Shown here one piece after another: positions 2,663 to 13,501 of a DNA stretch of 13,501 nt. How positions within the stretch are numbered: position 1 is the stretch's first letter; every line of letters starts with the position of its first letter. Location of the stretch: the UHGV virus genome UHGV-1805255, one strand, 5' to 3'. The notes beneath the pieces are model-generated. The model saw only the letters and a program-made list of their open reading frames with translations, made no database searches and was not told where the DNA came from. Source of the DNA: a virus. Position numbers and translations under genes: made by a program.

Positions 2663-3049
2663 TTATTGCATTCTGGCCAGGCCACGCTCTGTCATTTCAG
2701 CTGCCACACCGGCAGAGACACGAAACGCCGTTCCCGGCAGCACAAATGCCACAGGTTCATCCCGCGTGGCGTGAAGTGCATCAGTATGCAGCGTCACCAG
2801 TGCCACAACCGTGACCAGATCAGCCGTATCAGTCACGGTATCCGGCTGCGCTGATACCACCTCATTTTCATGTCCGGTCAGCGCATTTTCCGGGCTGATA
2901 GGGGTATCCTGATCGGCAGTGTCATCAAGCTCCTCTTCCAGCTCTGCCACACGGAGCGCCAGTTCTTCTTTCGTTCCCGTCAAACTGACATCGCGGTTCA
3001 GTTGCTCACCCAGCTCCTGAAGACGGGCAATCAGTTCATCTTTCGTCAT
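2663..3049 (-). CDS. FI: Head assembly / DNA packaging accessory protein FI
   Basis: ORF 2663..3088 matches lambda gpFI from the internal ATG at 3049 (MTKDELIARLQELGEQLNRDVSLTGTKEELALRVAEL...). A GGAGGAG RBS lies immediately upstream. The upstream part of the track ORF overlaps an RNA hairpin and is not coding. Confidence 0.92.
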   Translation of the reverse strand: MTKDELIARLQELGEQLNRDVSLTGTKEELALRVAELEEELDDTADQDTPISPENALTGHENEVVSAQPDTVTDTADLVTVVALVTLHTDALHATRDEPVAFVLPGTAFRVSAGVAAEMTERGLARMQ

Positions 3050-3070
3050 GGACTCCTCCACAGAGAAACA

Positions 3071-3088
3071 ATGGCCCCGAAGGGCCAT
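3071..3088 (-). other. Stable RNA stem-loop with cUUCGg tetraloop immediately after the E stop codon
   Basis: Plus strand atggccc-cgaa-gggccat has perfect 7-bp arms. On the mRNA this is AUGGCCC-UUCG-GGGCCAU, 2 nt after the E UAA and upstream of the FI RBS. Confidence 0.7.
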
Positions 3089-3090
3089 GA

Positions 3091-4116
3091 TTACGCCAGT
3101 TGTACAGACACGAACTCATCAGGGTCAGCCAGCAGCATCAGCGGTGCTGACTGAATCATGGTGAACTCACGCGCCGGATCGCCGGATGTCTTCCAGTTTT
3201 TCGGATAACGGGGAGACGCATTAATACCCTCACTCAATGCATCCGCATCCTGAATGCAGCCATAGGTGCGCAGACCGCGTGCATGAGTGTTACCCAGCAC
3301 CATCGTGTTGTCCGGCAGGAAGTTCTTTTTGACGCCGTTTTCCACGTACTGTCCGGAATACACGACGATGGCCACATCGCCATACATTCCCTTATAAGAC
3401 ACCGCTTTGCCCAGGTCTTTCACCGCTGTCTCCAGCTCGGAATGAGAGCCGCGACGGGTATCCAGCTTATCCTTGACGGCCTTGAAGGAACGGAACAGCG
3501 CCCAGCCTTTCGGATCAAACACGATGATATTCACCACACCGCTGGCGTTCAGCGCGTAGGCTTCGATATCGTCGGTCGGGTCATACGTGGACTTGTCACG
3601 CTTGCTCCACGCCGTGCCGCCGGACTGCGTGATGTTGTTGGCCGCACTGCGGCCCATATCCACCTCAACCGGATCGAAGGCTTCACCGGTCATGGTGTAT
3701 TTGCCCTTGAGCACGGCAGAAACTGCCTGCATCTCTTCCACCTGGGCAATGGCCAGCTCTTCGTCACGCATGTTCTGCATGATGATGCGACGGCGACGGT
3801 AAGCCGGGTCCGCCAGATTCTGCGGATCTTCATCCGGCAGGCGACGCAGGGTCATCTGCGGATTCACTTCATGCTTCGGCTTGACATATCCCGGCGTAAA
3901 TTCAGAGGTGGAGCCGCCACGGGAACGGATAACCTCACCGGAAACAATCGGCGAAACGTACAGCGCCATGTTTACCAGTCCCGGAATTTGTGAGAGATAG
4001 ACTTTCTCCGTAGTGAAGGGATAGCTCTCACGGAAAAAGAGACGCAGAAACAGCGGATCAAACTTAAATTTCTGCTCATTTGCCGCCAGCAGCTGGGCGG
4101 TTGTGTACATCGACAT
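3091..4116 (-). CDS. E: Major capsid protein E
   Basis: ORF 3091..4143 matches lambda gpE (341 aa) from the ATG at 4116 (MSMYTTAQLLAANEQKFKFDPLFLRLFFRESYPFTTEK...). TAA stop at 3091-3093. Confidence 0.97.
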   Translation of the reverse strand: MSMYTTAQLLAANEQKFKFDPLFLRLFFRESYPFTTEKVYLSQIPGLVNMALYVSPIVSGEVIRSRGGSTSEFTPGYVKPKHEVNPQMTLRRLPDEDPQNLADPAYRRRRIIMQNMRDEELAIAQVEEMQAVSAVLKGKYTMTGEAFDPVEVDMGRSAANNITQSGGTAWSKRDKSTYDPTDDIEAYALNASGVVNIIVFDPKGWALFRSFKAVKDKLDTRRGSHSELETAVKDLGKAVSYKGMYGDVAIVVYSGQYVENGVKKNFLPDNTMVLGNTHARGLRTYGCIQDADALSEGINASPRYPKNWKTSGDPAREFTMIQSAPLMLLADPDEFVSVQLA

Positions 4117-4125
4117 AAAAAAATC

Positions 4126-4154
4126 CCGTAAAAAAAGCCGCACAGGCGGCCTTT
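4126..4154 (-). terminator. Terminator-like GC hairpin plus U-tract between D and E (possible attenuator or mRNA stability element inside the late operon)
   Basis: The mRNA reads AAAGGCCGC-CUGU-GCGGCUUUU (9-bp stem with one G-U pair) followed by UUUACGGGAUUUUUUU directly before the E AUG. Read from sequence; function is inferred. Confidence 0.5.
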
Positions 4155-4171
4155 AGTGATGAAGGGTAAGC

Positions 4172-4504
4172 TTAAACGATGCTGATTGCCGTTCCGGCAA
4201 ACGCGGTCCGTTTTTTCGTCTCGTCGCTGGCAGCCTCCGGCCAGAGCACATCCTCATAACGGAACGTGCCGGACTTGTAGAACGTCAGCGTGGTGCTGGT
4301 CTGGTCAGCAGCAACCGCCAGAATGCCAACGGCAGCACCGTCGGTGGTGCCATCCCACGCAACCAGCTTACGGGTGGAGGTGTCCAGCATCAGCGGGGTC
4401 ATTGCAGGCGCTTTCGCACTCAATCCGCCGGGCGCGGTTGCCGTATGTGCCGGGTCACTGTTGCCCAGCGGCTGGTAATGGGTAAAGGTTTCTTTGCTCG
4501 TCAT
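4172..4504 (-). CDS. D: Head decoration protein D
   Basis: ORF 4172..4510 matches lambda gpD (110 aa) from the ATG at 4504 ([41 protein letters not shown]...). An AAGGGA RBS lies upstream. Confidence 0.95.
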
Positions 4505-4513
4505 AAACATCCC

Positions 4514-5119
4514 TTACACTGGTGTGTTCAGCAAATCGTTAACGGCATCAGATGCCGGGTTACCTGCAGCCAGCGGTGCCGGTGCCCCCTGCATCAGACG
4601 ATCCAGCGCAGTGTCACTGCGCGCCTGTGCACTCTGTGGTGCAACTGCCAGAATGCGGCGGGCCGTTTCCACGGTCATACCGGGGGTTTCGGCCAGCACG
4701 CGAGCCTGTTCTTCGCGTCCGTGAGCCTCCTCACAGTTGAGGATCCCCATAATGCGGCTGTTTTCTGCCGCAACCGCAGCGGTGATCTGCGCGTTCACGT
4801 CCGGCTGCGCCGCGCTGGCGTTTTCGCCCTCCGTCGCTGGCACCACGTCAGTAACGTCAGCCTGCGAAGCAGTGGCTGAAACAGTTGTTGATTGAGTCTC
4901 TTTGGTCATTCGCCCTCCTGAGAGACGGGATTTACGTGCATCCAGTGCATCACGCATAACGGTGATCGCATCGGTGCTGTTGACAAGTTCATCAGCCAGT
5001 CCGGCATCAATGGCCTCCTGACCGCTGTACACTGCAGCCTCGGTATCCAGCACAGCCTGCACGGACAGGCCGGTATATGCCGACACCTTCTGCGCAAACA
5101 TCCGGCGGGTTGCATCCAT
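4514..5119 (-). CDS. Nu3: Scaffolding protein Nu3 (in-frame internal start within C)
   Basis: In-frame ATG at 5119 (MDATRRMFAQKV...) gives 201 codons sharing the C stop, matching the lambda Nu3 arrangement. The call rests on lambda precedent. Confidence 0.75.
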   Translation of the reverse strand: MDATRRMFAQKVSAYTGLSVQAVLDTEAAVYSGQEAIDAGLADELVNSTDAITVMRDALDARKSRLSGGRMTKETQSTTVSATASQADVTDVVPATEGENASAAQPDVNAQITAAVAAENSRIMGILNCEEAHGREEQARVLAETPGMTVETARRILAVAPQSAQARSDTALDRLMQGAPAPLAAGNPASDAVNDLLNTPV

Positions 5120-5813
5120 CCGGGACTGCAGTGTCTCCCGGACGTCATCCGGAAGATGGCTGTAGGGATTGCCATCCACCTTATGGCTGCCGCTGTAAAT
5201 CAGCGTGATTTCCACGCCCTGTTTCTCCAGCGCAGCACCGTAATTACTGTGAGCCATCATGACGCCGATGGAGCCTGTCCGGGCGGTCTGCGTGACCAGA
5301 CGCCGGGAAGCGGCACTGGCAAGCAGCTGACCTGCACTGCAGTTCATGTCGTTGGCCAGCGCCCATACCGGTTTTATGTCACGCACACGGGCGATGATGT
5401 CAGCGCAGTCAAATGCCCCCGCCACCATCCCGCCGGGCGTGTCCATATCGAGCAGAATGCCGTCCACCATCGGATCGCTGGCAGCCTGTTGCAGACGGGC
5501 GATAATGCCGTTGTAACCGGTCATCCCCGAGTACGGCTTCAGCGCCCGCGTCCGGCTGACCAGCGTGCCGGAAACCGGCAGCACGGCGATGCCATTCATG
5601 ACCTGATAACTGCGGGCCTGTCGTGGTCCGTTATCATCACCGGATAACGCCAGCGTCGCGGGTGCCTCCGGGGCAGTCAGGCTGTCACCGGACACCGCAT
5701 CTGTCAGGCGGCTGATCCCAAGCTGGCCTGCAAGCGCACAAAAGAAAACCCGCGCATAGGCGGGTTCAAGCATCAGCGGCTCATTAAAGGCCATGCTGGC
5801 AATATGCGGGAGA

Positions 5814-5833
<20 letters not shown>
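4514..5833 (-). CDS. C: Head maturation protease / scaffold-related protein C
   Basis: ORF 4514..5968 matches lambda gpC (439 aa) from the GTG at 5833 (V/MTAELRNLPHIASMAFNEPLMLEPAYARVFF...). A GGAGGAG RBS lies upstream, and the start overlaps the 3' end of B by 20 nt as in lambda. ClpP/SppA-like peptidase fold is established for this family. Confidence 0.93.
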
Positions 5834-9514
<3,681 letters not shown>

Positions 9515-9540
<26 letters not shown>

Positions 9541-10060
9541 TCAGCAACCCCGGTATCAGTTCATCCAGCGCGGCTGCTTTGTTCATGGCTTTGATAATAT
9601 CCCGTTTCAGGAAATCAATATGCCGGTTATCCAGCTCAGGAAAACGTCGCTGCACCGACAGAGGAATACCGTCGAGAATACTGGATATTTCCCTTGCTAT
9701 ACGCGACAGCACGAAAGTACAGAATGCGGTTTCCACCACTTCAGCCGATTCTTTGGCATTTTTCAGTTCCTGCGCCGTCGCCTGAGCACGAGTCAGGCGA
9801 TGGCGCTCAAATTCAAGTGTTCCGGGGTGAAGATCTGCCTCGCTGGCCAGCCGCAGTTCTTCAACCTCCCGGCGCAGCTTTTCGTTCTCAATTTCAGCAT
9901 CCCTTTCGGCATACCATTTTATGACGGCGGCAGAATCATAAAGCACCTCATTACCCTTACCACCACCCCGCAGAACGGGCATTCCCTGCTCCTGCCAGTT
10001 CTGAATGGTACGGATACTCGCGCCGAAAATGTCAGCCAGCTGCTTTTTGTTGACTTCCAT
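9515..10060 (-). CDS. Nu1: Terminase small subunit Nu1
   Basis: 181-aa ORF (MEVNKKQLADIFGASIRTIQNWQEQGMPVLRGGGKGNEVLYD...) matching lambda gpNu1, with the N-terminal winged-HTH region. ATG at 10060, directly downstream of cosB. Confidence 0.97.
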
Positions 10061-10084
10061 TGTTCATTCCACGGACAAAAACAG

Positions 10085-10199
10085 AGAAAGGAAACGACAG
10101 GGGCCAAAAAGCCCGTTTTCAGCACCTGTCGTTTCCTTTCTTTTCAGGGGGTATTTTAAATAAAAACATTAAGTTACGGCGAAGAAGAACGGAAACGCC
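10085..10199. promoter_or_regulatory. cosB: terminase (Nu1) binding R-elements R1, R2, R3
   Basis: A perfect 17-bp inverted pair, agaaaggaaacgacagg (10085-10101) and cctgtcgtttcctttct (10125-10141), plus a third related element gaacggaaacgcc (10187-10199). These match the lambda CGTTTCC-type R sites between cosN and Nu1. Confidence 0.85.
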
Positions 10200-10237
10200 T
10201 TAAACCGGAAAATTTTCATAAATAGCGAAAACCCGCG

Positions 10238-10249
10238 AGGTCGCCGCCC
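10238..10249. other. cosN: 12-nt cohesive-end sequence (GGGCGGCGACCT on the minus strand)
   Basis: Plus strand aggtcgccgccc at 10238-10249 is the reverse complement of the lambda cohesive end. The 49 nt on the Nu1 side are identical to the lambda left end as I recall it. Confidence 0.9.
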
Positions 10250-10310
10250 CGTAACGGCCCGGATCGCCGGAAAGGACCCGTAAAAATGATAATGGTTATC
10301 ATTTTCAATG

Positions 10311-10498
10311 TAGTCCGGTTTCTTCCACCATCGCACCGGACAGGCGACTATGAGGGGACAACGCCGCGCTCCGTTAACGCGGTAAACCCCGGTGTGTATC
10401 GTTTTTGATTATCCCCGCACACTCGCGCAGAGGAGTCTCCCTGTCGGGCTGCGGTCTCTGTTAATGAGGGAATACAGCGACGATACGGCGCATGATGT
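10311..10498. repeat. Copy 1 of a ~190-bp imperfect direct repeat (cos-proximal copy)
   Basis: By-eye alignment with 12086-12285: ttcttccacc...cagg...atgagggaca...gcggtaaa...ccggtgtg.atcgtttttgattat..ccgcacactcgcgcagaggagt...gtcgggct.cggtc...gttaatg.gg.aatac.gcgacgat. Roughly 85-90% identity over the core. Confidence 0.8.
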
Positions 10499-10524
10499 GT
10501 CAGGCTTGAATACATTTATCCGTT

Positions 10525-10550
10525 AAAAGGGATATCAGTTAAGTTATCCC
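10525..10550 (-). terminator. Weak terminator-like hairpin 3' of cargo gene B
   Basis: The mRNA reads GGGAUA-ACUUAACUGA-UAUCCC followed by UUUUAACGG. The 6-bp stem is AU-rich and the U-tract short, so this is a weak call. Confidence 0.25.
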
Positions 10551-10607
10551 GTGTAGGGTATAAGCCATTATCAAAGCCACTCAGTAGCGAATGGCTTTTG
10601 TAATGGA

Positions 10608-11057
10608 CTATTTAATTAGTGATGCTGCGTATTCGATTAGATATAACTTAGGTGCCAACCAGATTTTTAACCATGTCATATTGGTTACTACAGCAATAAT
10701 AAAACTTACCCACAGAACAAAAACTGCTGCTAATGGTAAGATAAGAAAACTAATCTCACCGTTACTTTCCCAAATCATGGTCGGTTTGTATTTAGGCTTC
10801 CCTTTTTCCCATGACCATCCTTCATTATCGAACTTACCAATTTCAACTTTTTGGTACTGTTTCTTCATAAACCAAATAACCAGCGGGATTGTTGAAATGG
10901 CTATTAATGTTTTAATCAGGCTATCAACCATATTCCATACCAGCAACTGATGAACAACATCCGGAATCTGAGCCTGACTGAATGCAATGGCGGAATCAAT
11001 TCCATCGCTGGCCTTCTTCAATAAATCAACAAGAATTTTATTTGCTTCTTCTTGCAT
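10608..11057 (-). CDS. Cargo gene B: small (149 aa) predicted two-pass membrane protein, function unknown
   Basis: ATG at 11057 preceded by AGGA at about 7 nt; the track ORF begins upstream at a TTG. Two hydrophobic segments (SLIKTLIAISTIPLVIWFM and ISFLILPLAAVFVLWVSFIIAVVT) flank a Lys-rich loop. About 37% GC in a sampled stretch. No homolog recognised. Confidence 0.7.
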   Translation of the reverse strand: MQEEANKILVDLLKKASDGIDSAIAFSQAQIPDVVHQLLVWNMVDSLIKTLIAISTIPLVIWFMKKQYQKVEIGKFDNEGWSWEKGKPKYKPTMIWESNGEISFLILPLAAVFVLWVSFIIAVVTNMTWLKIWLAPKLYLIEYAASLIK

Positions 11058-11181
11058 GTTTATATCCTGTAAGTTGTAAGCCTGTTCGAGAAAAATAAAC
11101 AACTACGAGAGACAGAAAAAAATATCTCAGGCTCTCTTTCTATAAGCTTTTAGTTGAGGATGTTCTGCAAAACAAAACTGG

Positions 11182-12042
11182 TTAGTTATGTAACTGCTTC
11201 CGGAATACAACAGCCGACGAGCTACAACGTAAAATTCGTTTGATTGTGGCAGTTGAGGAAACAGACTTGCATTTCTCAACATCATCAATAATGACCACAT
11301 CCGGTACAGGAATGACGCGGGTATGCAATGTTTTTGCACTAATAACATCACAGCCATTCAGTGGTCGAATATCTGCATCTTCAGGCACTACCAGAAGCAC
11401 ACGTTTTTCCGGTGCAGAAAAGCCAGCAGCAAGAGTGCGTGACAATAAAGTCATTCCGCTGCGTGGCTTCATACAAATTTCAGAAATATGATTCTTTTCG
11501 TCCAAATGATGCTGGACATCATTTTTATCATCACTCAACAACTCTGCTGTTAATACAATCCCTGCTGTCTCAGATTTCCAGGAAATGCTGATATCCTGAT
11601 CATCTGCATCAACATCATATTTCATCGAGTAAGGACTAAAGCTACGTCCAACGAACGCATCATTTACCAGTACACGCCCACCCTGTCTGACCTGAAAGTC
11701 AACGCGCCCGGAAAGCTGATTTGCTGTTACAAGCAATGCCTTTTTTCTTTTTGTTTTATTGCTCATTGCCACCAACTGTTCAGCCATCTCTCTTGTCACA
11801 CTACCAGAAACTCTTCCTTGCATTTTCACAGAAAATTTTCTGGATGTAGTAGCATCGACATTAAAAAATCTGGATGTAATCAGGCAGTTATTAACAATTG
11901 GCATCAGCTCACTTACGATTGTAAAAAATTCCCGGTAAAGCTCATTTTGCTTTTCAACACACAGCTTTCCACAATCGTCCAGCTTACGCTCAAGAGCACT
12001 TAACCTTTCCATTATTGAATTAATTTTTTGCAACTCTTTCAT
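11182..12042 (-). CDS. Cargo gene A: 286-aa protein of unknown function, predicted soluble, N-terminal coiled-coil-like segment
   Basis: ATG at 12042 preceded by AGGAGG at 5 nt (MKELQKINSIMERLSALERKLDD...). The track ORF extends to a TTG at 12303 through the GC-rich repeat, with an R/C/S/P-rich translation that I do not consider coding. About 38% GC in sampled stretches. TAA stop at 11182. Confidence 0.75.
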   Translation of the reverse strand: MKELQKINSIMERLSALERKLDDCGKLCVEKQNELYREFFTIVSELMPIVNNCLITSRFFNVDATTSRKFSVKMQGRVSGSVTREMAEQLVAMSNKTKRKKALLVTANQLSGRVDFQVRQGGRVLVNDAFVGRSFSPYSMKYDVDADDQDISISWKSETAGIVLTAELLSDDKNDVQHHLDEKNHISEICMKPRSGMTLLSRTLAAGFSAPEKRVLLVVPEDADIRPLNGCDVISAKTLHTRVIPVPDVVIIDDVEKCKSVSSTATIKRILRCSSSAVVFRKQLHN

Positions 12043-12065
12043 CAAAACCTCCTGACAAAGATACC

Positions 12066-12083
12066 GTGCGACCACGGTCGCAC
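12066..12083. promoter_or_regulatory. Palindrome gtgcgacc-ac-ggtcgcac (copy 1), candidate operator / protein-binding site upstream of cargo gene A
   Basis: Perfect 8-bp inverted arms around a 2-bp centre, 24-41 bp upstream of the gene A ATG and directly abutting repeat copy 2. Confidence 0.5.
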
Positions 12084-12085
12084 GC

Positions 12086-12285
12086 TCCTGAATACATGCC
12101 CTGTTTCTTCCACCCTCGCACAGGACTGGCGAGCATGAGGGACAAACCCGCGAATCATTAGTGCGGTAAAAACCCGGTGTGCATCGTTTTTGATTATTTC
12201 CGCACACTCGCGCAGAGGAGTTCCCCGTCGGGCTACGGTCATGGTTAATGCGGAAATACGGCGACGATGCAGCGCGGTATTTAAT
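12086..12285. repeat. Copy 2 of the ~190-bp imperfect direct repeat (upstream of the cargo cassette)
   Basis: Aligns with 10311-10498 (see copy 1). It is bracketed on both sides by the 16-18-bp palindrome. Confidence 0.8.
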
Positions 12286-12302
12286 GTGCGACCACGGTCG
12301 CA
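12286..12302. promoter_or_regulatory. Palindrome tgcgacc-ac-ggtcgca (copy 2)
   Basis: Same core as 12066-12083 with 7-bp perfect arms. Centre-to-centre spacing is 220 bp, about 21 helical turns. Confidence 0.5.
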
Positions 12303-12322
12303 AACGAGAAACAAAGAGATTT

Positions 12323-12634
12323 TTATGCTACAGAGGAACAAGCTGGCGGGTAATTCAGCGTAGTGAATACCGGCATCTCCATCTTGTATGCGTAATGATA
12401 CTCAGCAGTTGCTCCAGCAGACGCTTTCCAGCCAGGAAGCATCAAAATAGCATCAGCACAACGAAGCATTGCAAAGCAAATATCCATGTATTCACGTTGT
12501 GTCAAACCATTAGGCAAAGTGGCTGGATTCAAGACAGAGTGACCATGTCGTGACAAACGATCTGCCTCTTTATTAAAGGCGTCACGATTAAAGTTCTCAT
12601 ATCCCGTCATTGGCCCGGCAATATAAATTTTCAT
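12323..12634 (-). CDS. DUF4406 / nucleoside 2-deoxyribosyltransferase-like small protein
   Basis: 103-aa ORF with ATG at 12634 (MKIYIAGPMTGYENFNRDAF...LMLPGWKASAGATAEYHYAYKMEMPVF). The N-terminal IYIAGPxTG and the LPGW-x-S-x-GA-x-x-E motifs fit my recollection of the DUF4406 family. Family assignment is from memory. Confidence 0.6.
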   Translation of the reverse strand: MKIYIAGPMTGYENFNRDAFNKEADRLSRHGHSVLNPATLPNGLTQREYMDICFAMLRCADAILMLPGWKASAGATAEYHYAYKMEMPVFTTLNYPPACSSVA

Positions 12635-12675
12635 TCACTATCCAACAAATTGAGCTCGTTTTTGATACAGAGGGA

Positions 12676-13113
12676 TTAATTCAGGCATTGCGTCTTGATG
12701 TATTCCTGCAAGTAGTTAACCTGCGCAGTTATCCTGTCGATCCCACTTCGGAGACGGTAATAATTGAGTTCAGCATCTGCTGTAAGTCTTGGGCTTTCTC
12801 CATCGCCCATGCTGCTGGCTCCGGTCGTTGACTTTGCACAGGTGGCGGCGACTTGCAGGCGCTTACGCCCAGCAGAAACATCAGCACGGAGGCTTTCGAT
12901 AGTCGCGTTAGCATCAGCAAGCTCCTTTGTATATCTGGCATCGAGTTCTGCTACGTCACGTTGACGCTTCTGCATATCAGCGATTGTGGATGTGGCTTTA
13001 TCGCGCTGCTCTTTGTAGGAGATGGCGTTATCACGGTAATGATTAACCGCCCATGACAGGCAGACGATGATGCAGATAACCAGAGCGGAGATAATCGCGG
13101 TTAACCGACTCAT
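12676..13113 (-). CDS. Rz: i-spanin Rz (inner-membrane spanin subunit)
   Basis: ORF 12676..13149 matches lambda-type Rz from the ATG at 13113 ([34 protein letters not shown]...). N-terminal TM segment, coiled-coil-rich periplasmic part, and an embedded Rz1 frame. Confidence 0.9.
12729..12914 (-). CDS. Rz1: o-spanin Rz1 (outer-membrane lipoprotein, embedded in Rz in +1 frame)
   Basis: Embedded ORF with ATG at 12914: [36 protein letters not shown]... Signal peptide with lipobox-like VSAC followed by a Pro-rich segment, as in lambda Rz1. An alternative upstream ATG at 12941 is possible. Confidence 0.75.
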
Positions 13114-13205
13114 GACATCAACACCCCAACGGCCAGAAACCACGGCCACGCATCGTTGCCATTAAATGCGAGCAACGCTGCCATGAAAAAGAAAATCATG
13201 CTCAT
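13110..13205 (-). CDS. Putative 31-aa hydrophobic micro-protein between R and Rz
   Basis: Hand translation gives [31 protein letters not shown]. Its ATG overlaps the R stop (ATGA) and its TGA overlaps the Rz ATG (ATGA). No RBS is evident, and it is below the size cutoff of the ORF track. Confidence 0.35.
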
Positions 13206-13501
13206 TGCTGCCCCCACAAACAGACTTCACGCTCAATCTCACGACGAGTCATCAGGCCTTTCCATTGCTTACCGCCAGCAGATATCCAGCGACGTAGCTG
13301 ATCACATGCGCCTTTGATATCGCCCTGGTTTATTTTGCGAAGAAGCGTCGATGTTCTGAAATTACCAGCGCCCACGTTGTAAACGAACGAGTAAAGAGCG
13401 CCGCGCGTTGTTTCCGGGGCACTGTTGCAAAGTTAGCGATGAGGCAGCCTTTTGTCTTATTCAAAGGCCTTACATTTCAAAAACTCTGCTTACCAGGCGC
13501 A
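13202..13501 (-). CDS. R: Phage-21-type (T4-lysozyme-like, GH24) endolysin R, C-terminal 99 codons; 5' end lies beyond the window
   Basis: Hand translation of the minus strand gives ...[71 protein letters not shown], matching the C-terminus of the phage 21 R / RrrD-type lysozyme as I recall it. TGA stop at 13202-13204. Not in the ORF track because it has no start in the window. Confidence 0.85.

Follow-up and report, generated by a model that had tools for sequence, protein, structure and literature searches.

What does a 286-residue protein encoded among the late genes of a lambda-like phage do, and is its reading frame a gene at all? The question is raised by positions 11182..12042 (minus strand) of the virus genome UHGV-1805255, of which we analysed a stretch of 13,501 nucleotides, hereafter the window; we call the frame gene A. 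An earlier note, made from the letters alone, had described it as a cargo gene with a coiled-coil-like N-terminus and an acidic cluster. Our results indicate that gene A is very probably a real orphan accessory gene, or moron, and an ordinary one, which belongs to a catalogued family and occupies a slot known to be variable in lambdoid and N15-like phages. As to its role, we favour, with a probability of roughly 0.3, a late-expressed accessory factor which binds proteins and takes part in conflict between phages or between phage and host.

Gene A as a protein-coding gene

The coding sequence (CDS), 286 codons plus a stop, is indicated by the list of open reading frames (ORFs), by the sequence itself, by a match to the phage protein family PHROG 2571 and by the same CDS in related records. 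It begins with the ATG at 12042-12040, giving the protein N-terminus MKELQKINSIMERLSALERKL, and the Shine-Dalgarno sequence AGGAGG lies 5 nt upstream of this codon at 12048..12053 (minus strand). The AGGAGG is unchanged in the loci L001, L003, L006 and L008. The same 861-nt CDS has been called in PV340565, NZ_CP100500 and NZ_CP126913, by PGAP and by the depositors of Escherichia phage PhiR46_1, and every homologue of gene A begins at the same methionine, so that the frame and the start at 12042 proposed earlier hold. Comparison of alleles at 79–93% identity yields ratios of nonsynonymous to synonymous substitution (dN/dS) of 0.25–0.43, which argues for a protein-coding gene under purifying selection. 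The product has no transmembrane segment and an isoelectric point of 8.9: it is soluble, basic and modular.

These values bear directly on the possibility that gene A is a decaying or non-functional remnant, which we consider very unlikely. Truncated, frameshifted or fused alleles do exist (P0012, P0015, P0031, P0042, L027 and YDC107_1), but full-length alleles have been kept at 79–99% identity with the dN/dS given above and a conserved Shine-Dalgarno sequence, the cluster of a 99%-identical allele holds 448 member sequences, and PhiR46_1, which was deposited as a complete phage genome, carries gene A intact.

The gene A frame remains free of stops for 285 nt upstream of the ATG, and the first start codon in this extension, 261 nt before the ATG, is the TTG at 12303, which is preceded by no Shine-Dalgarno sequence. 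The extension runs through one copy of a direct repeat of about 190 nt, whose two copies (~10313-10520 and ~12084-12285) are 82–90% identical and bracket gene A and its neighbour, gene B; the first copy adjoins cosQ. The repeat corresponds to a small opposite-strand ORF of 44–58 aa that belongs to no family (...VCIVFDY.RTLAQKEFPVGLRS.L.REY.DD.AHDVSGLNTFIR). This ORF is intact in copy 1, from GTG 10392 to a stop at 10526 on the plus strand, and copy 2 (12084..12285, plus strand) is a degenerate, frameshifted version of the same small gene or pseudogene. Because the extension crosses this degenerate copy, it is an antisense shadow frame of the opposite-strand (pseudo)gene. The frame equivalent to gene A in repeat copy 1 holds a stop, and together with the bare TTG and the shared methionine this bears out the earlier judgement that the open frame is coincidental.

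The repeat element itself is present in 3181 of 5426 E. coli genomes, next to cos and mostly unannotated, and many copies share a stop that falls in frame at codon 9 when the ORF is read in its long form. The repeat may act as a homology patch for the exchange of morons. A structured RNA within the repeat upstream of gene A was considered and is unsupported, with folding z-scores of -1.4 and -1.7.

The earlier statement that the protein has no recognisable family is confirmed by profile searches. Gene A matches no Pfam family at E<=1 with the whole protein or at E<=10 with three segments searched separately, NCBIfam returns no match, and neither gene A nor gene B nor the neighbouring DUF4406 protein matches a defence model of PADLOC-DB v2 at E<=1. 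The only family matched, also when the three segments were compared with PHROGs one by one, is PHROG 2571, which gene A covers in full length (E 8.8e-161; residues 1-286 against profile positions 1-291 of 291) and which carries no functional information.

Homologues were sought with three word-indexed searches and one exhaustive HMMER search. Among 5.8 billion clustered proteins gene A is found in Escherichia only, at 71–99% identity, and the exhaustive search of 1.84 billion representatives adds only single-domain relatives: proteins of 72–181 aa that match residues 95-170 and a 111-aa Citrobacter protein, P0027, that matches residues 181-257. A follow-up profile search finds further 72-aa Providencia relatives of the central module, while a profile of the C-terminal module alone finds no new relatives. 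Apart from these single-domain proteins the family is, as far as the searched sequences go, confined to Escherichia. Of 5426 complete E. coli genomes, 35 carry gene A, which is chromosomal in 21 copies and lies on plasmids of ~46 kb in 14, and an E. albertii plasmid carries it as well; tblastn against 50,697 phage records finds it in PhiR46_1 and YDC107_1 only. Rfam models applied to positions 9900-13501 give one chance miRNA match only, and we found no literature on the accession, the phage names or a function for this locus.

Protein modules and their relatives

Structure prediction and the exhaustive profile search suggest that gene A is composed of three modules: a helical hairpin, a beta-sandwich and a small alpha/beta C-terminus. 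AlphaFold run with seven close homologues performed poorly (mean predicted local distance difference test score, pLDDT, of 45.7), and with a 17-sequence alignment to which distant relatives had been added only residues 100-170 were modelled confidently, with pLDDT 80–86. Residues 1-59 (11866..12042, minus strand) are predicted by AlphaFold to form an antiparallel, coiled-coil-like hairpin with helices at 2-22 and 29-59 (pLDDT about 55–70). The best heptad register of these helices places a hydrophobic residue at 11 of 17 a/d positions, in keeping with the heptad-like spacing noticed earlier. A linker helix, predicted with pLDDT below 50 at residues 81-97 (11752..11802, minus strand), ends in the basic patch KTKRKK.

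The confident part, residues 100-170 (11533..11745, minus strand), is predicted to be an up-and-down beta-sandwich of six strands, on the basis of the second model and of the homologues P0023, P0024, P0026, P0028 and P0033-P0038, which match PHROG 2571 at positions 100-171 with E values of 1e-15 to 1e-25. Within it the model and the alignment place residues 143-150, DVDADDQD (11593..11616, minus strand), in an acidic loop that joins strands 4 and 5.

This loop belongs to the stretch in which the earlier note had seen, and itself distrusted, a loose likeness to the signature of Pol-beta-type nucleotidyltransferases. What speaks for such an enzyme is only the spacing of a G-x-S (G132, S134) and a D-x-D (D143, D145) within residues 131-145. 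The segment concerned, VGRSFSPYSMKYDVDADDQD (residues 131-150), falls in strands 3-4 and the following loop of the all-beta sandwich, however, and in distant homologues D143-V-D145 is replaced by R-V-N, N-V-N, S-V-S or S-V-M, S134 varies, and at positions 148-150 only the acidic character is retained. Neither Pfam, at E<=1 for the whole protein and E<=10 for the middle domain, nor PADLOC returns a family, and there is no fold match. Because the segment lies inside a beta-sandwich and its aspartates are not conserved, we regard the nucleotidyltransferase lead as refuted and leave it next to no probability: DVDADDQD is no catalytic D-x-D motif.

The small acidic alpha/beta module at residues 196-286 (11185..11457, minus strand) is delineated by the first AlphaFold model and by P0027. 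A beta-alpha-beta region is predicted at residues 199-273 with pLDDT 62–76 in the first model only, and to that extent the alpha/beta fold expected earlier for the C-terminal half is recovered. P0027, from Citrobacter freundii, is the sole distant relative of this module (E 6e-4), and D222, D254 and an acidic residue at 256 (E/D) are conserved between the two proteins, a combination that could leave room for a metal-binding site. A Toprim-like module was also considered and receives no clear support: there is no Pfam Toprim match, E221 is replaced by serine in P0027, and the hhalign score against the DnaG Toprim is no better than chance, as 28 of 100 column shuffles match it. Fold searches with the gene A model return nothing significant, and the best hit of a profile search against the sequences of the PDB is a DUF4097 protein at E 0.024, which is not significant.

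The closest known proteins to the central module are the 72-aa Providencia proteins P0033-P0038 and the 181-aa E. coli protein P0024, which are homologous to residues 100-170 at 30–39% identity. Like gene A they are late-operon morons of lambdoid prophages, but they lie between Q and the holin gene, whereas gene A lies between Rz and cos, and they have neither its N-terminal hairpin nor its C-terminal module; P0024 has an unrelated C-terminal module instead (PHROG 2091/1085). A circular permutation that would relate gene A to P0024 by swapping the helical and beta modules was rejected, since BLASTP aligns them at E 3.5.

Directly downstream of the 72-aa gene in a Providencia prophage lies a gene for an 81-aa helical protein (L014, 6351-6596). 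Its motif SLEERVTALEKQLTD is identical in 8 of 15 positions to gene A residues 9-23, SIMERLSALERKLDD, at E 0.001, a value obtained in a single comparison out of about 14; P0024 does not match this 81-aa protein. In the manner of a Rosetta stone, this hints weakly at joint action of the helical and beta modules. Two further prophages show other contents around the beta-module gene. In the E. coli prophage with P0024 (L012), about 2.9 kb at 2934-5826 have no called gene; they separate P0024 from an Rce1-like (CPBP) gene that lies downstream of Q. In a Providencia alcalifaciens prophage (L017, 6326-6649) a 107-aa GrlR-type protein (PF16518) is encoded between the 72-aa gene and the holin gene.

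Genomic setting and the upstream centromere site

Gene A sits in the variable moron slot between lysis genes and cos. All genes of the window, which covers the late region of a lambda-like phage, are on the minus strand, in the order lysozyme and Rz (12676-13149), DUF4406 gene (12323-12634), gene A, gene B (10608..11057), cos and Nu1 (9515-10060), followed by terminase A, portal, protease, head and tail genes. The cosN sequence GGGCGGCGACCT at 10249-10238 is identical to that of lambda, and from the order around it genes A and B are the last before the right cohesive end. Between cosN and Nu1 there is a 26-nt inverted repeat (10085-10141), which corresponds to the cosB region of lambda.

Over the cargo region the identity to PhiR46_1 is 96.9%. 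With its telL/telR ends, ParA/ParB and N15-type replication gene, that phage is an N15-like linear plasmid-prophage; it also carries a protelomerase-sized gene. Gene A is found in integrated lambdoid prophages as well, and its GC content is 36–43% against ~51% for the backbone. Truncated and deleted alleles occur in otherwise intact elements, and from the truncated and fused ones it follows that gene A is dispensable for maintenance of the element. Such alleles, in L027 (4093-4407), P0031 and the PhiR46-like YDC107_1 (CP025712), comprise a 104-aa N-terminal fragment directly before Nu1, an in-frame fusion of the N-terminus of the DUF4406 protein to the C-terminal module, and a copy with 73% coverage. 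The DUF4406 protein, which resembles nucleoside 2-deoxyribosyltransferases, is 83% identical to N15 gp57, and its gene belongs to the conserved backbone of N15-like and phiKO2-like phage-plasmids, with 343 plasmid records that are mostly from Klebsiella and Escherichia.

Directly upstream of gene A, 22 nt before its ATG, lies an 18-bp palindrome (12066..12083), GTGCGACCACGGTCGCAC, which matches the N15 SopB centromere sites IR1/IR4 letter for letter and which a terminator scan reports as a terminator-like hairpin on the minus strand. A second palindrome with one mismatch is located at 12286..12303, at the edge of the upstream repeat copy. We searched with the 18-bp pattern GTGCGACC-NN-GGTCGCAC, as in N15 IR1-IR4, whose sequences have been published (PMC7205306, Table 4); by chance, no such palindromes would be expected in the window. 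N15 has exactly four sites, of which IR4 is placed between gp58 and gp59, and PhiR46_1 has five, including the same pair near gene A, so that the IR4-type site is duplicated in this lineage. At all loci examined, integrated chromosomal prophages among them, the site at 12066-12083 stands ahead of gene A, and it is perfect in a 79%-identical allele though the flanks have diverged. By sequence, therefore, 12066-12083 is an N15-type SopB centromere site; binding of SopB to it is a prediction only.

Proposed role and comparison with known systems

Gene A has the same orientation as the late genes, Rz and Nu1. Between the DUF4406 gene and the ATG we find no sigma-70-like promoter with at least 9 of 12 consensus positions, and a relaxed scan gives a single 8/12 match. 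Because of this late-operon orientation, the absence of a good promoter and the hairpin and centromere site just upstream, we propose that Q-antiterminated late transcription would read through into gene A during lytic growth and that in the plasmid-prophage the gene would be expressed hardly or not at all. The protein would act by binding other proteins rather than by catalysis, with the hairpin driving oligomerisation and the beta-sandwich recognising a target, and its role would lie in conflict with other phages or with the host, as exclusion, defence or counter-defence. We read the locus in terms of conflict because of the low GC content, the rarity and the dispensability of the gene, the slot that it occupies and the fact that its beta-module relatives are all in the moron slot between Q and holin.

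Several points weigh against this proposal and keep it tentative. We infer the role, and found no homologue of known function; blastp of gene A against phi80 orf62-66, Tai and Ati included, gives no alignment at E<=10, and PADLOC has no match for gene A. A consensus promoter scan can miss promoters. Two thirds of the model have pLDDT below 50, fold searches gave no significant match, and 'protein-binding adaptor' is a default label for proteins that combine a coiled coil with a beta-sandwich. The conserved acidic triad of the C-terminal module could, moreover, mean a metal-dependent enzyme.

Other explanations were weighed as well. The earlier note spoke of a cassette, which implies that gene A and gene B act together, and on that basis gene A could be a defence or abortive infection protein expressed in the lysogen, which senses phage and acts through gene B, whose product has 149 aa and matches PHROG 3054 and no Pfam family. 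In support, genes A and B are both cargo of low GC content enclosed by direct repeats, the slot is known as a defence hotspot, gene B has two transmembrane segments, and in lambdoid prophages it also occurs alone between ral and cIII in the early-left operon, the position at which lambda carries the exclusion gene sieB. The pairing, however, is not kept. Gene A occurs without gene B in L004/L005, where the order is Rz, repeat, inverted repeat, gene A and Nu1. Gene B is found in 59 genomes against 35 for gene A. It stands alone in L020 and L021, and the E. coli genomes that have it without gene A number at least 24, the ral-cIII slot and a site next to an HNH remnant being examples of its location; its relatives occur in 180 phage records, among them virulent Vibrio, N4-like and phi92-like phages. 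Because each occurs alone elsewhere, the two genes are independent morons and form no obligate system, and the implied two-gene cassette does not stand. With no promoter detected before gene A, a hairpin just upstream of it and PADLOC empty for both proteins, we consider joint defence in the lysogen unlikely. Somewhat less likely still is that gene A serves its own late programme, as a helper of lysis timing or virion assembly whose beta-sandwich would be a companion of the lysis cassette. Its late-operon orientation would suit this, a coiled coil with a beta-sandwich is common in virion proteins, and the beta-module family always flanks the lysis cassette, before the holin gene in Providencia and E. 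coli and after Rz here. Yet both positions are also generic moron slots of lambdoid late operons, by which the adjacency is confounded, and the gene is rare, is truncated or deleted in related elements, where it is dispensable, and encodes no membrane segment.

A connection to plasmid partition is suggested by the centromere site. The C-terminal module might be a degenerate ParA/MinD-like fragment that acts on SopB-centromere complexes, for instance to cause incompatibility with rival N15-like plasmids. The exact IR1/IR4 site, kept 22 nt upstream at every locus amid diverged flanks, is consistent with this; residues 192-224 (KPRSGMT-helix-RVLLVVPEDAD) resemble the deviant Walker A motif, helix and strand of MinD, and hhalign chooses this register with a MinD score above all 100 column shuffles. 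The MinD comparison was, however, picked after the resemblance had been noticed, the hhalign probability is 0.2–2%, and with the phage's own type of SopA the score is equalled by 34 of 100 shuffles. KPRSGMT has methionine in place of the catalytic lysine, P0027, the only distant homologue, lacks the motif (KRDDDMW), and the module is ~90 aa long, against more than 200 for a ParA fold. Moreover, the 21 chromosomal copies among the 35 in E. coli lie in lambdoid prophages, which need no partition. We therefore hold a partition function to be very improbable, only slightly less so than a decaying remnant. A bolder version of the conflict reading, about as unlikely as joint defence with gene B, is that gene A may found a new single-protein phage-conflict family, that it would share a target-recognising beta-sandwich with the 72-aa Providencia proteins, and that its expression in the plasmid-prophage would be gated by a SopB complex on the site 22 nt upstream. 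If true, such gating would couple the machinery of plasmid segregation to the control of cargo genes.

We retain the late-expressed conflict factor as the preferred reading. The analysis is of use mainly as a clean negative, in that gene A is neither a nucleotidyltransferase nor a known defence protein and does not form one half of a two-gene system. New are the division of the protein into modules, the stand-alone relatives of the beta-module, the separate occurrence of genes A and B, and the N15 centromere site immediately ahead of gene A. The 72-aa stand-alone beta-module offers a tractable entry for work on structure and function, and gene A behind the centromere site in PhiR46_1, which has been isolated and is inducible, makes a test case for ParB/SopB gating of cargo in phage-plasmids.

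Set beside known systems, gene A is identical in its CDS to the RefSeq entry WP_021512245.1, a 'hypothetical protein', and does not differ from PHROG 2571, to which it belongs. Its likeness to ParA/MinD ATPases is local, comprising P-loop, helix and strand in residues 192-224; the pattern K-G-G-x-x-G-K-[ST] is absent, as is a full nucleotide-binding fold, and a SIMIBI ATPase of this kind was rejected as not significant.

The right arm of N15 is arranged like the window, with a methylase, a holin, lysozyme, an Rz-like gene, gp56 and gp57 (DUF4406) before cargo and cos, and the IR4 palindrome and cosQ are common to both. The cargo differs: around IR4, N15 carries the cytosine methylase gp58 and gp59, where genes A and B are found here, and it has no homologue of gene A or B and no ~190-nt repeat. 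Gene A has no similarity to gp58 or gp59.

A parallel for the proposed role is offered by phi80, in which orf62-66 lie between Rz and cosQ, so that Tai/Ati (orf63/orf64) occupy the same slot as gene A. Ati, with 76 aa, differs from the 286-aa gene A protein in size and architecture. The region from the lysis genes to the packaging module is documented as a site of defence and counter-defence genes: in phi80 it holds tai, a defence gene that lies on the opposite strand and is expressed in the lysogen, together with its antidote ati, which is located on the late strand and controlled by Q (PMC11364771). This arrangement shows that orientation in the slot reflects timing, and gene A, like ati and in contrast to tai, is co-oriented with the Q-controlled late operon.

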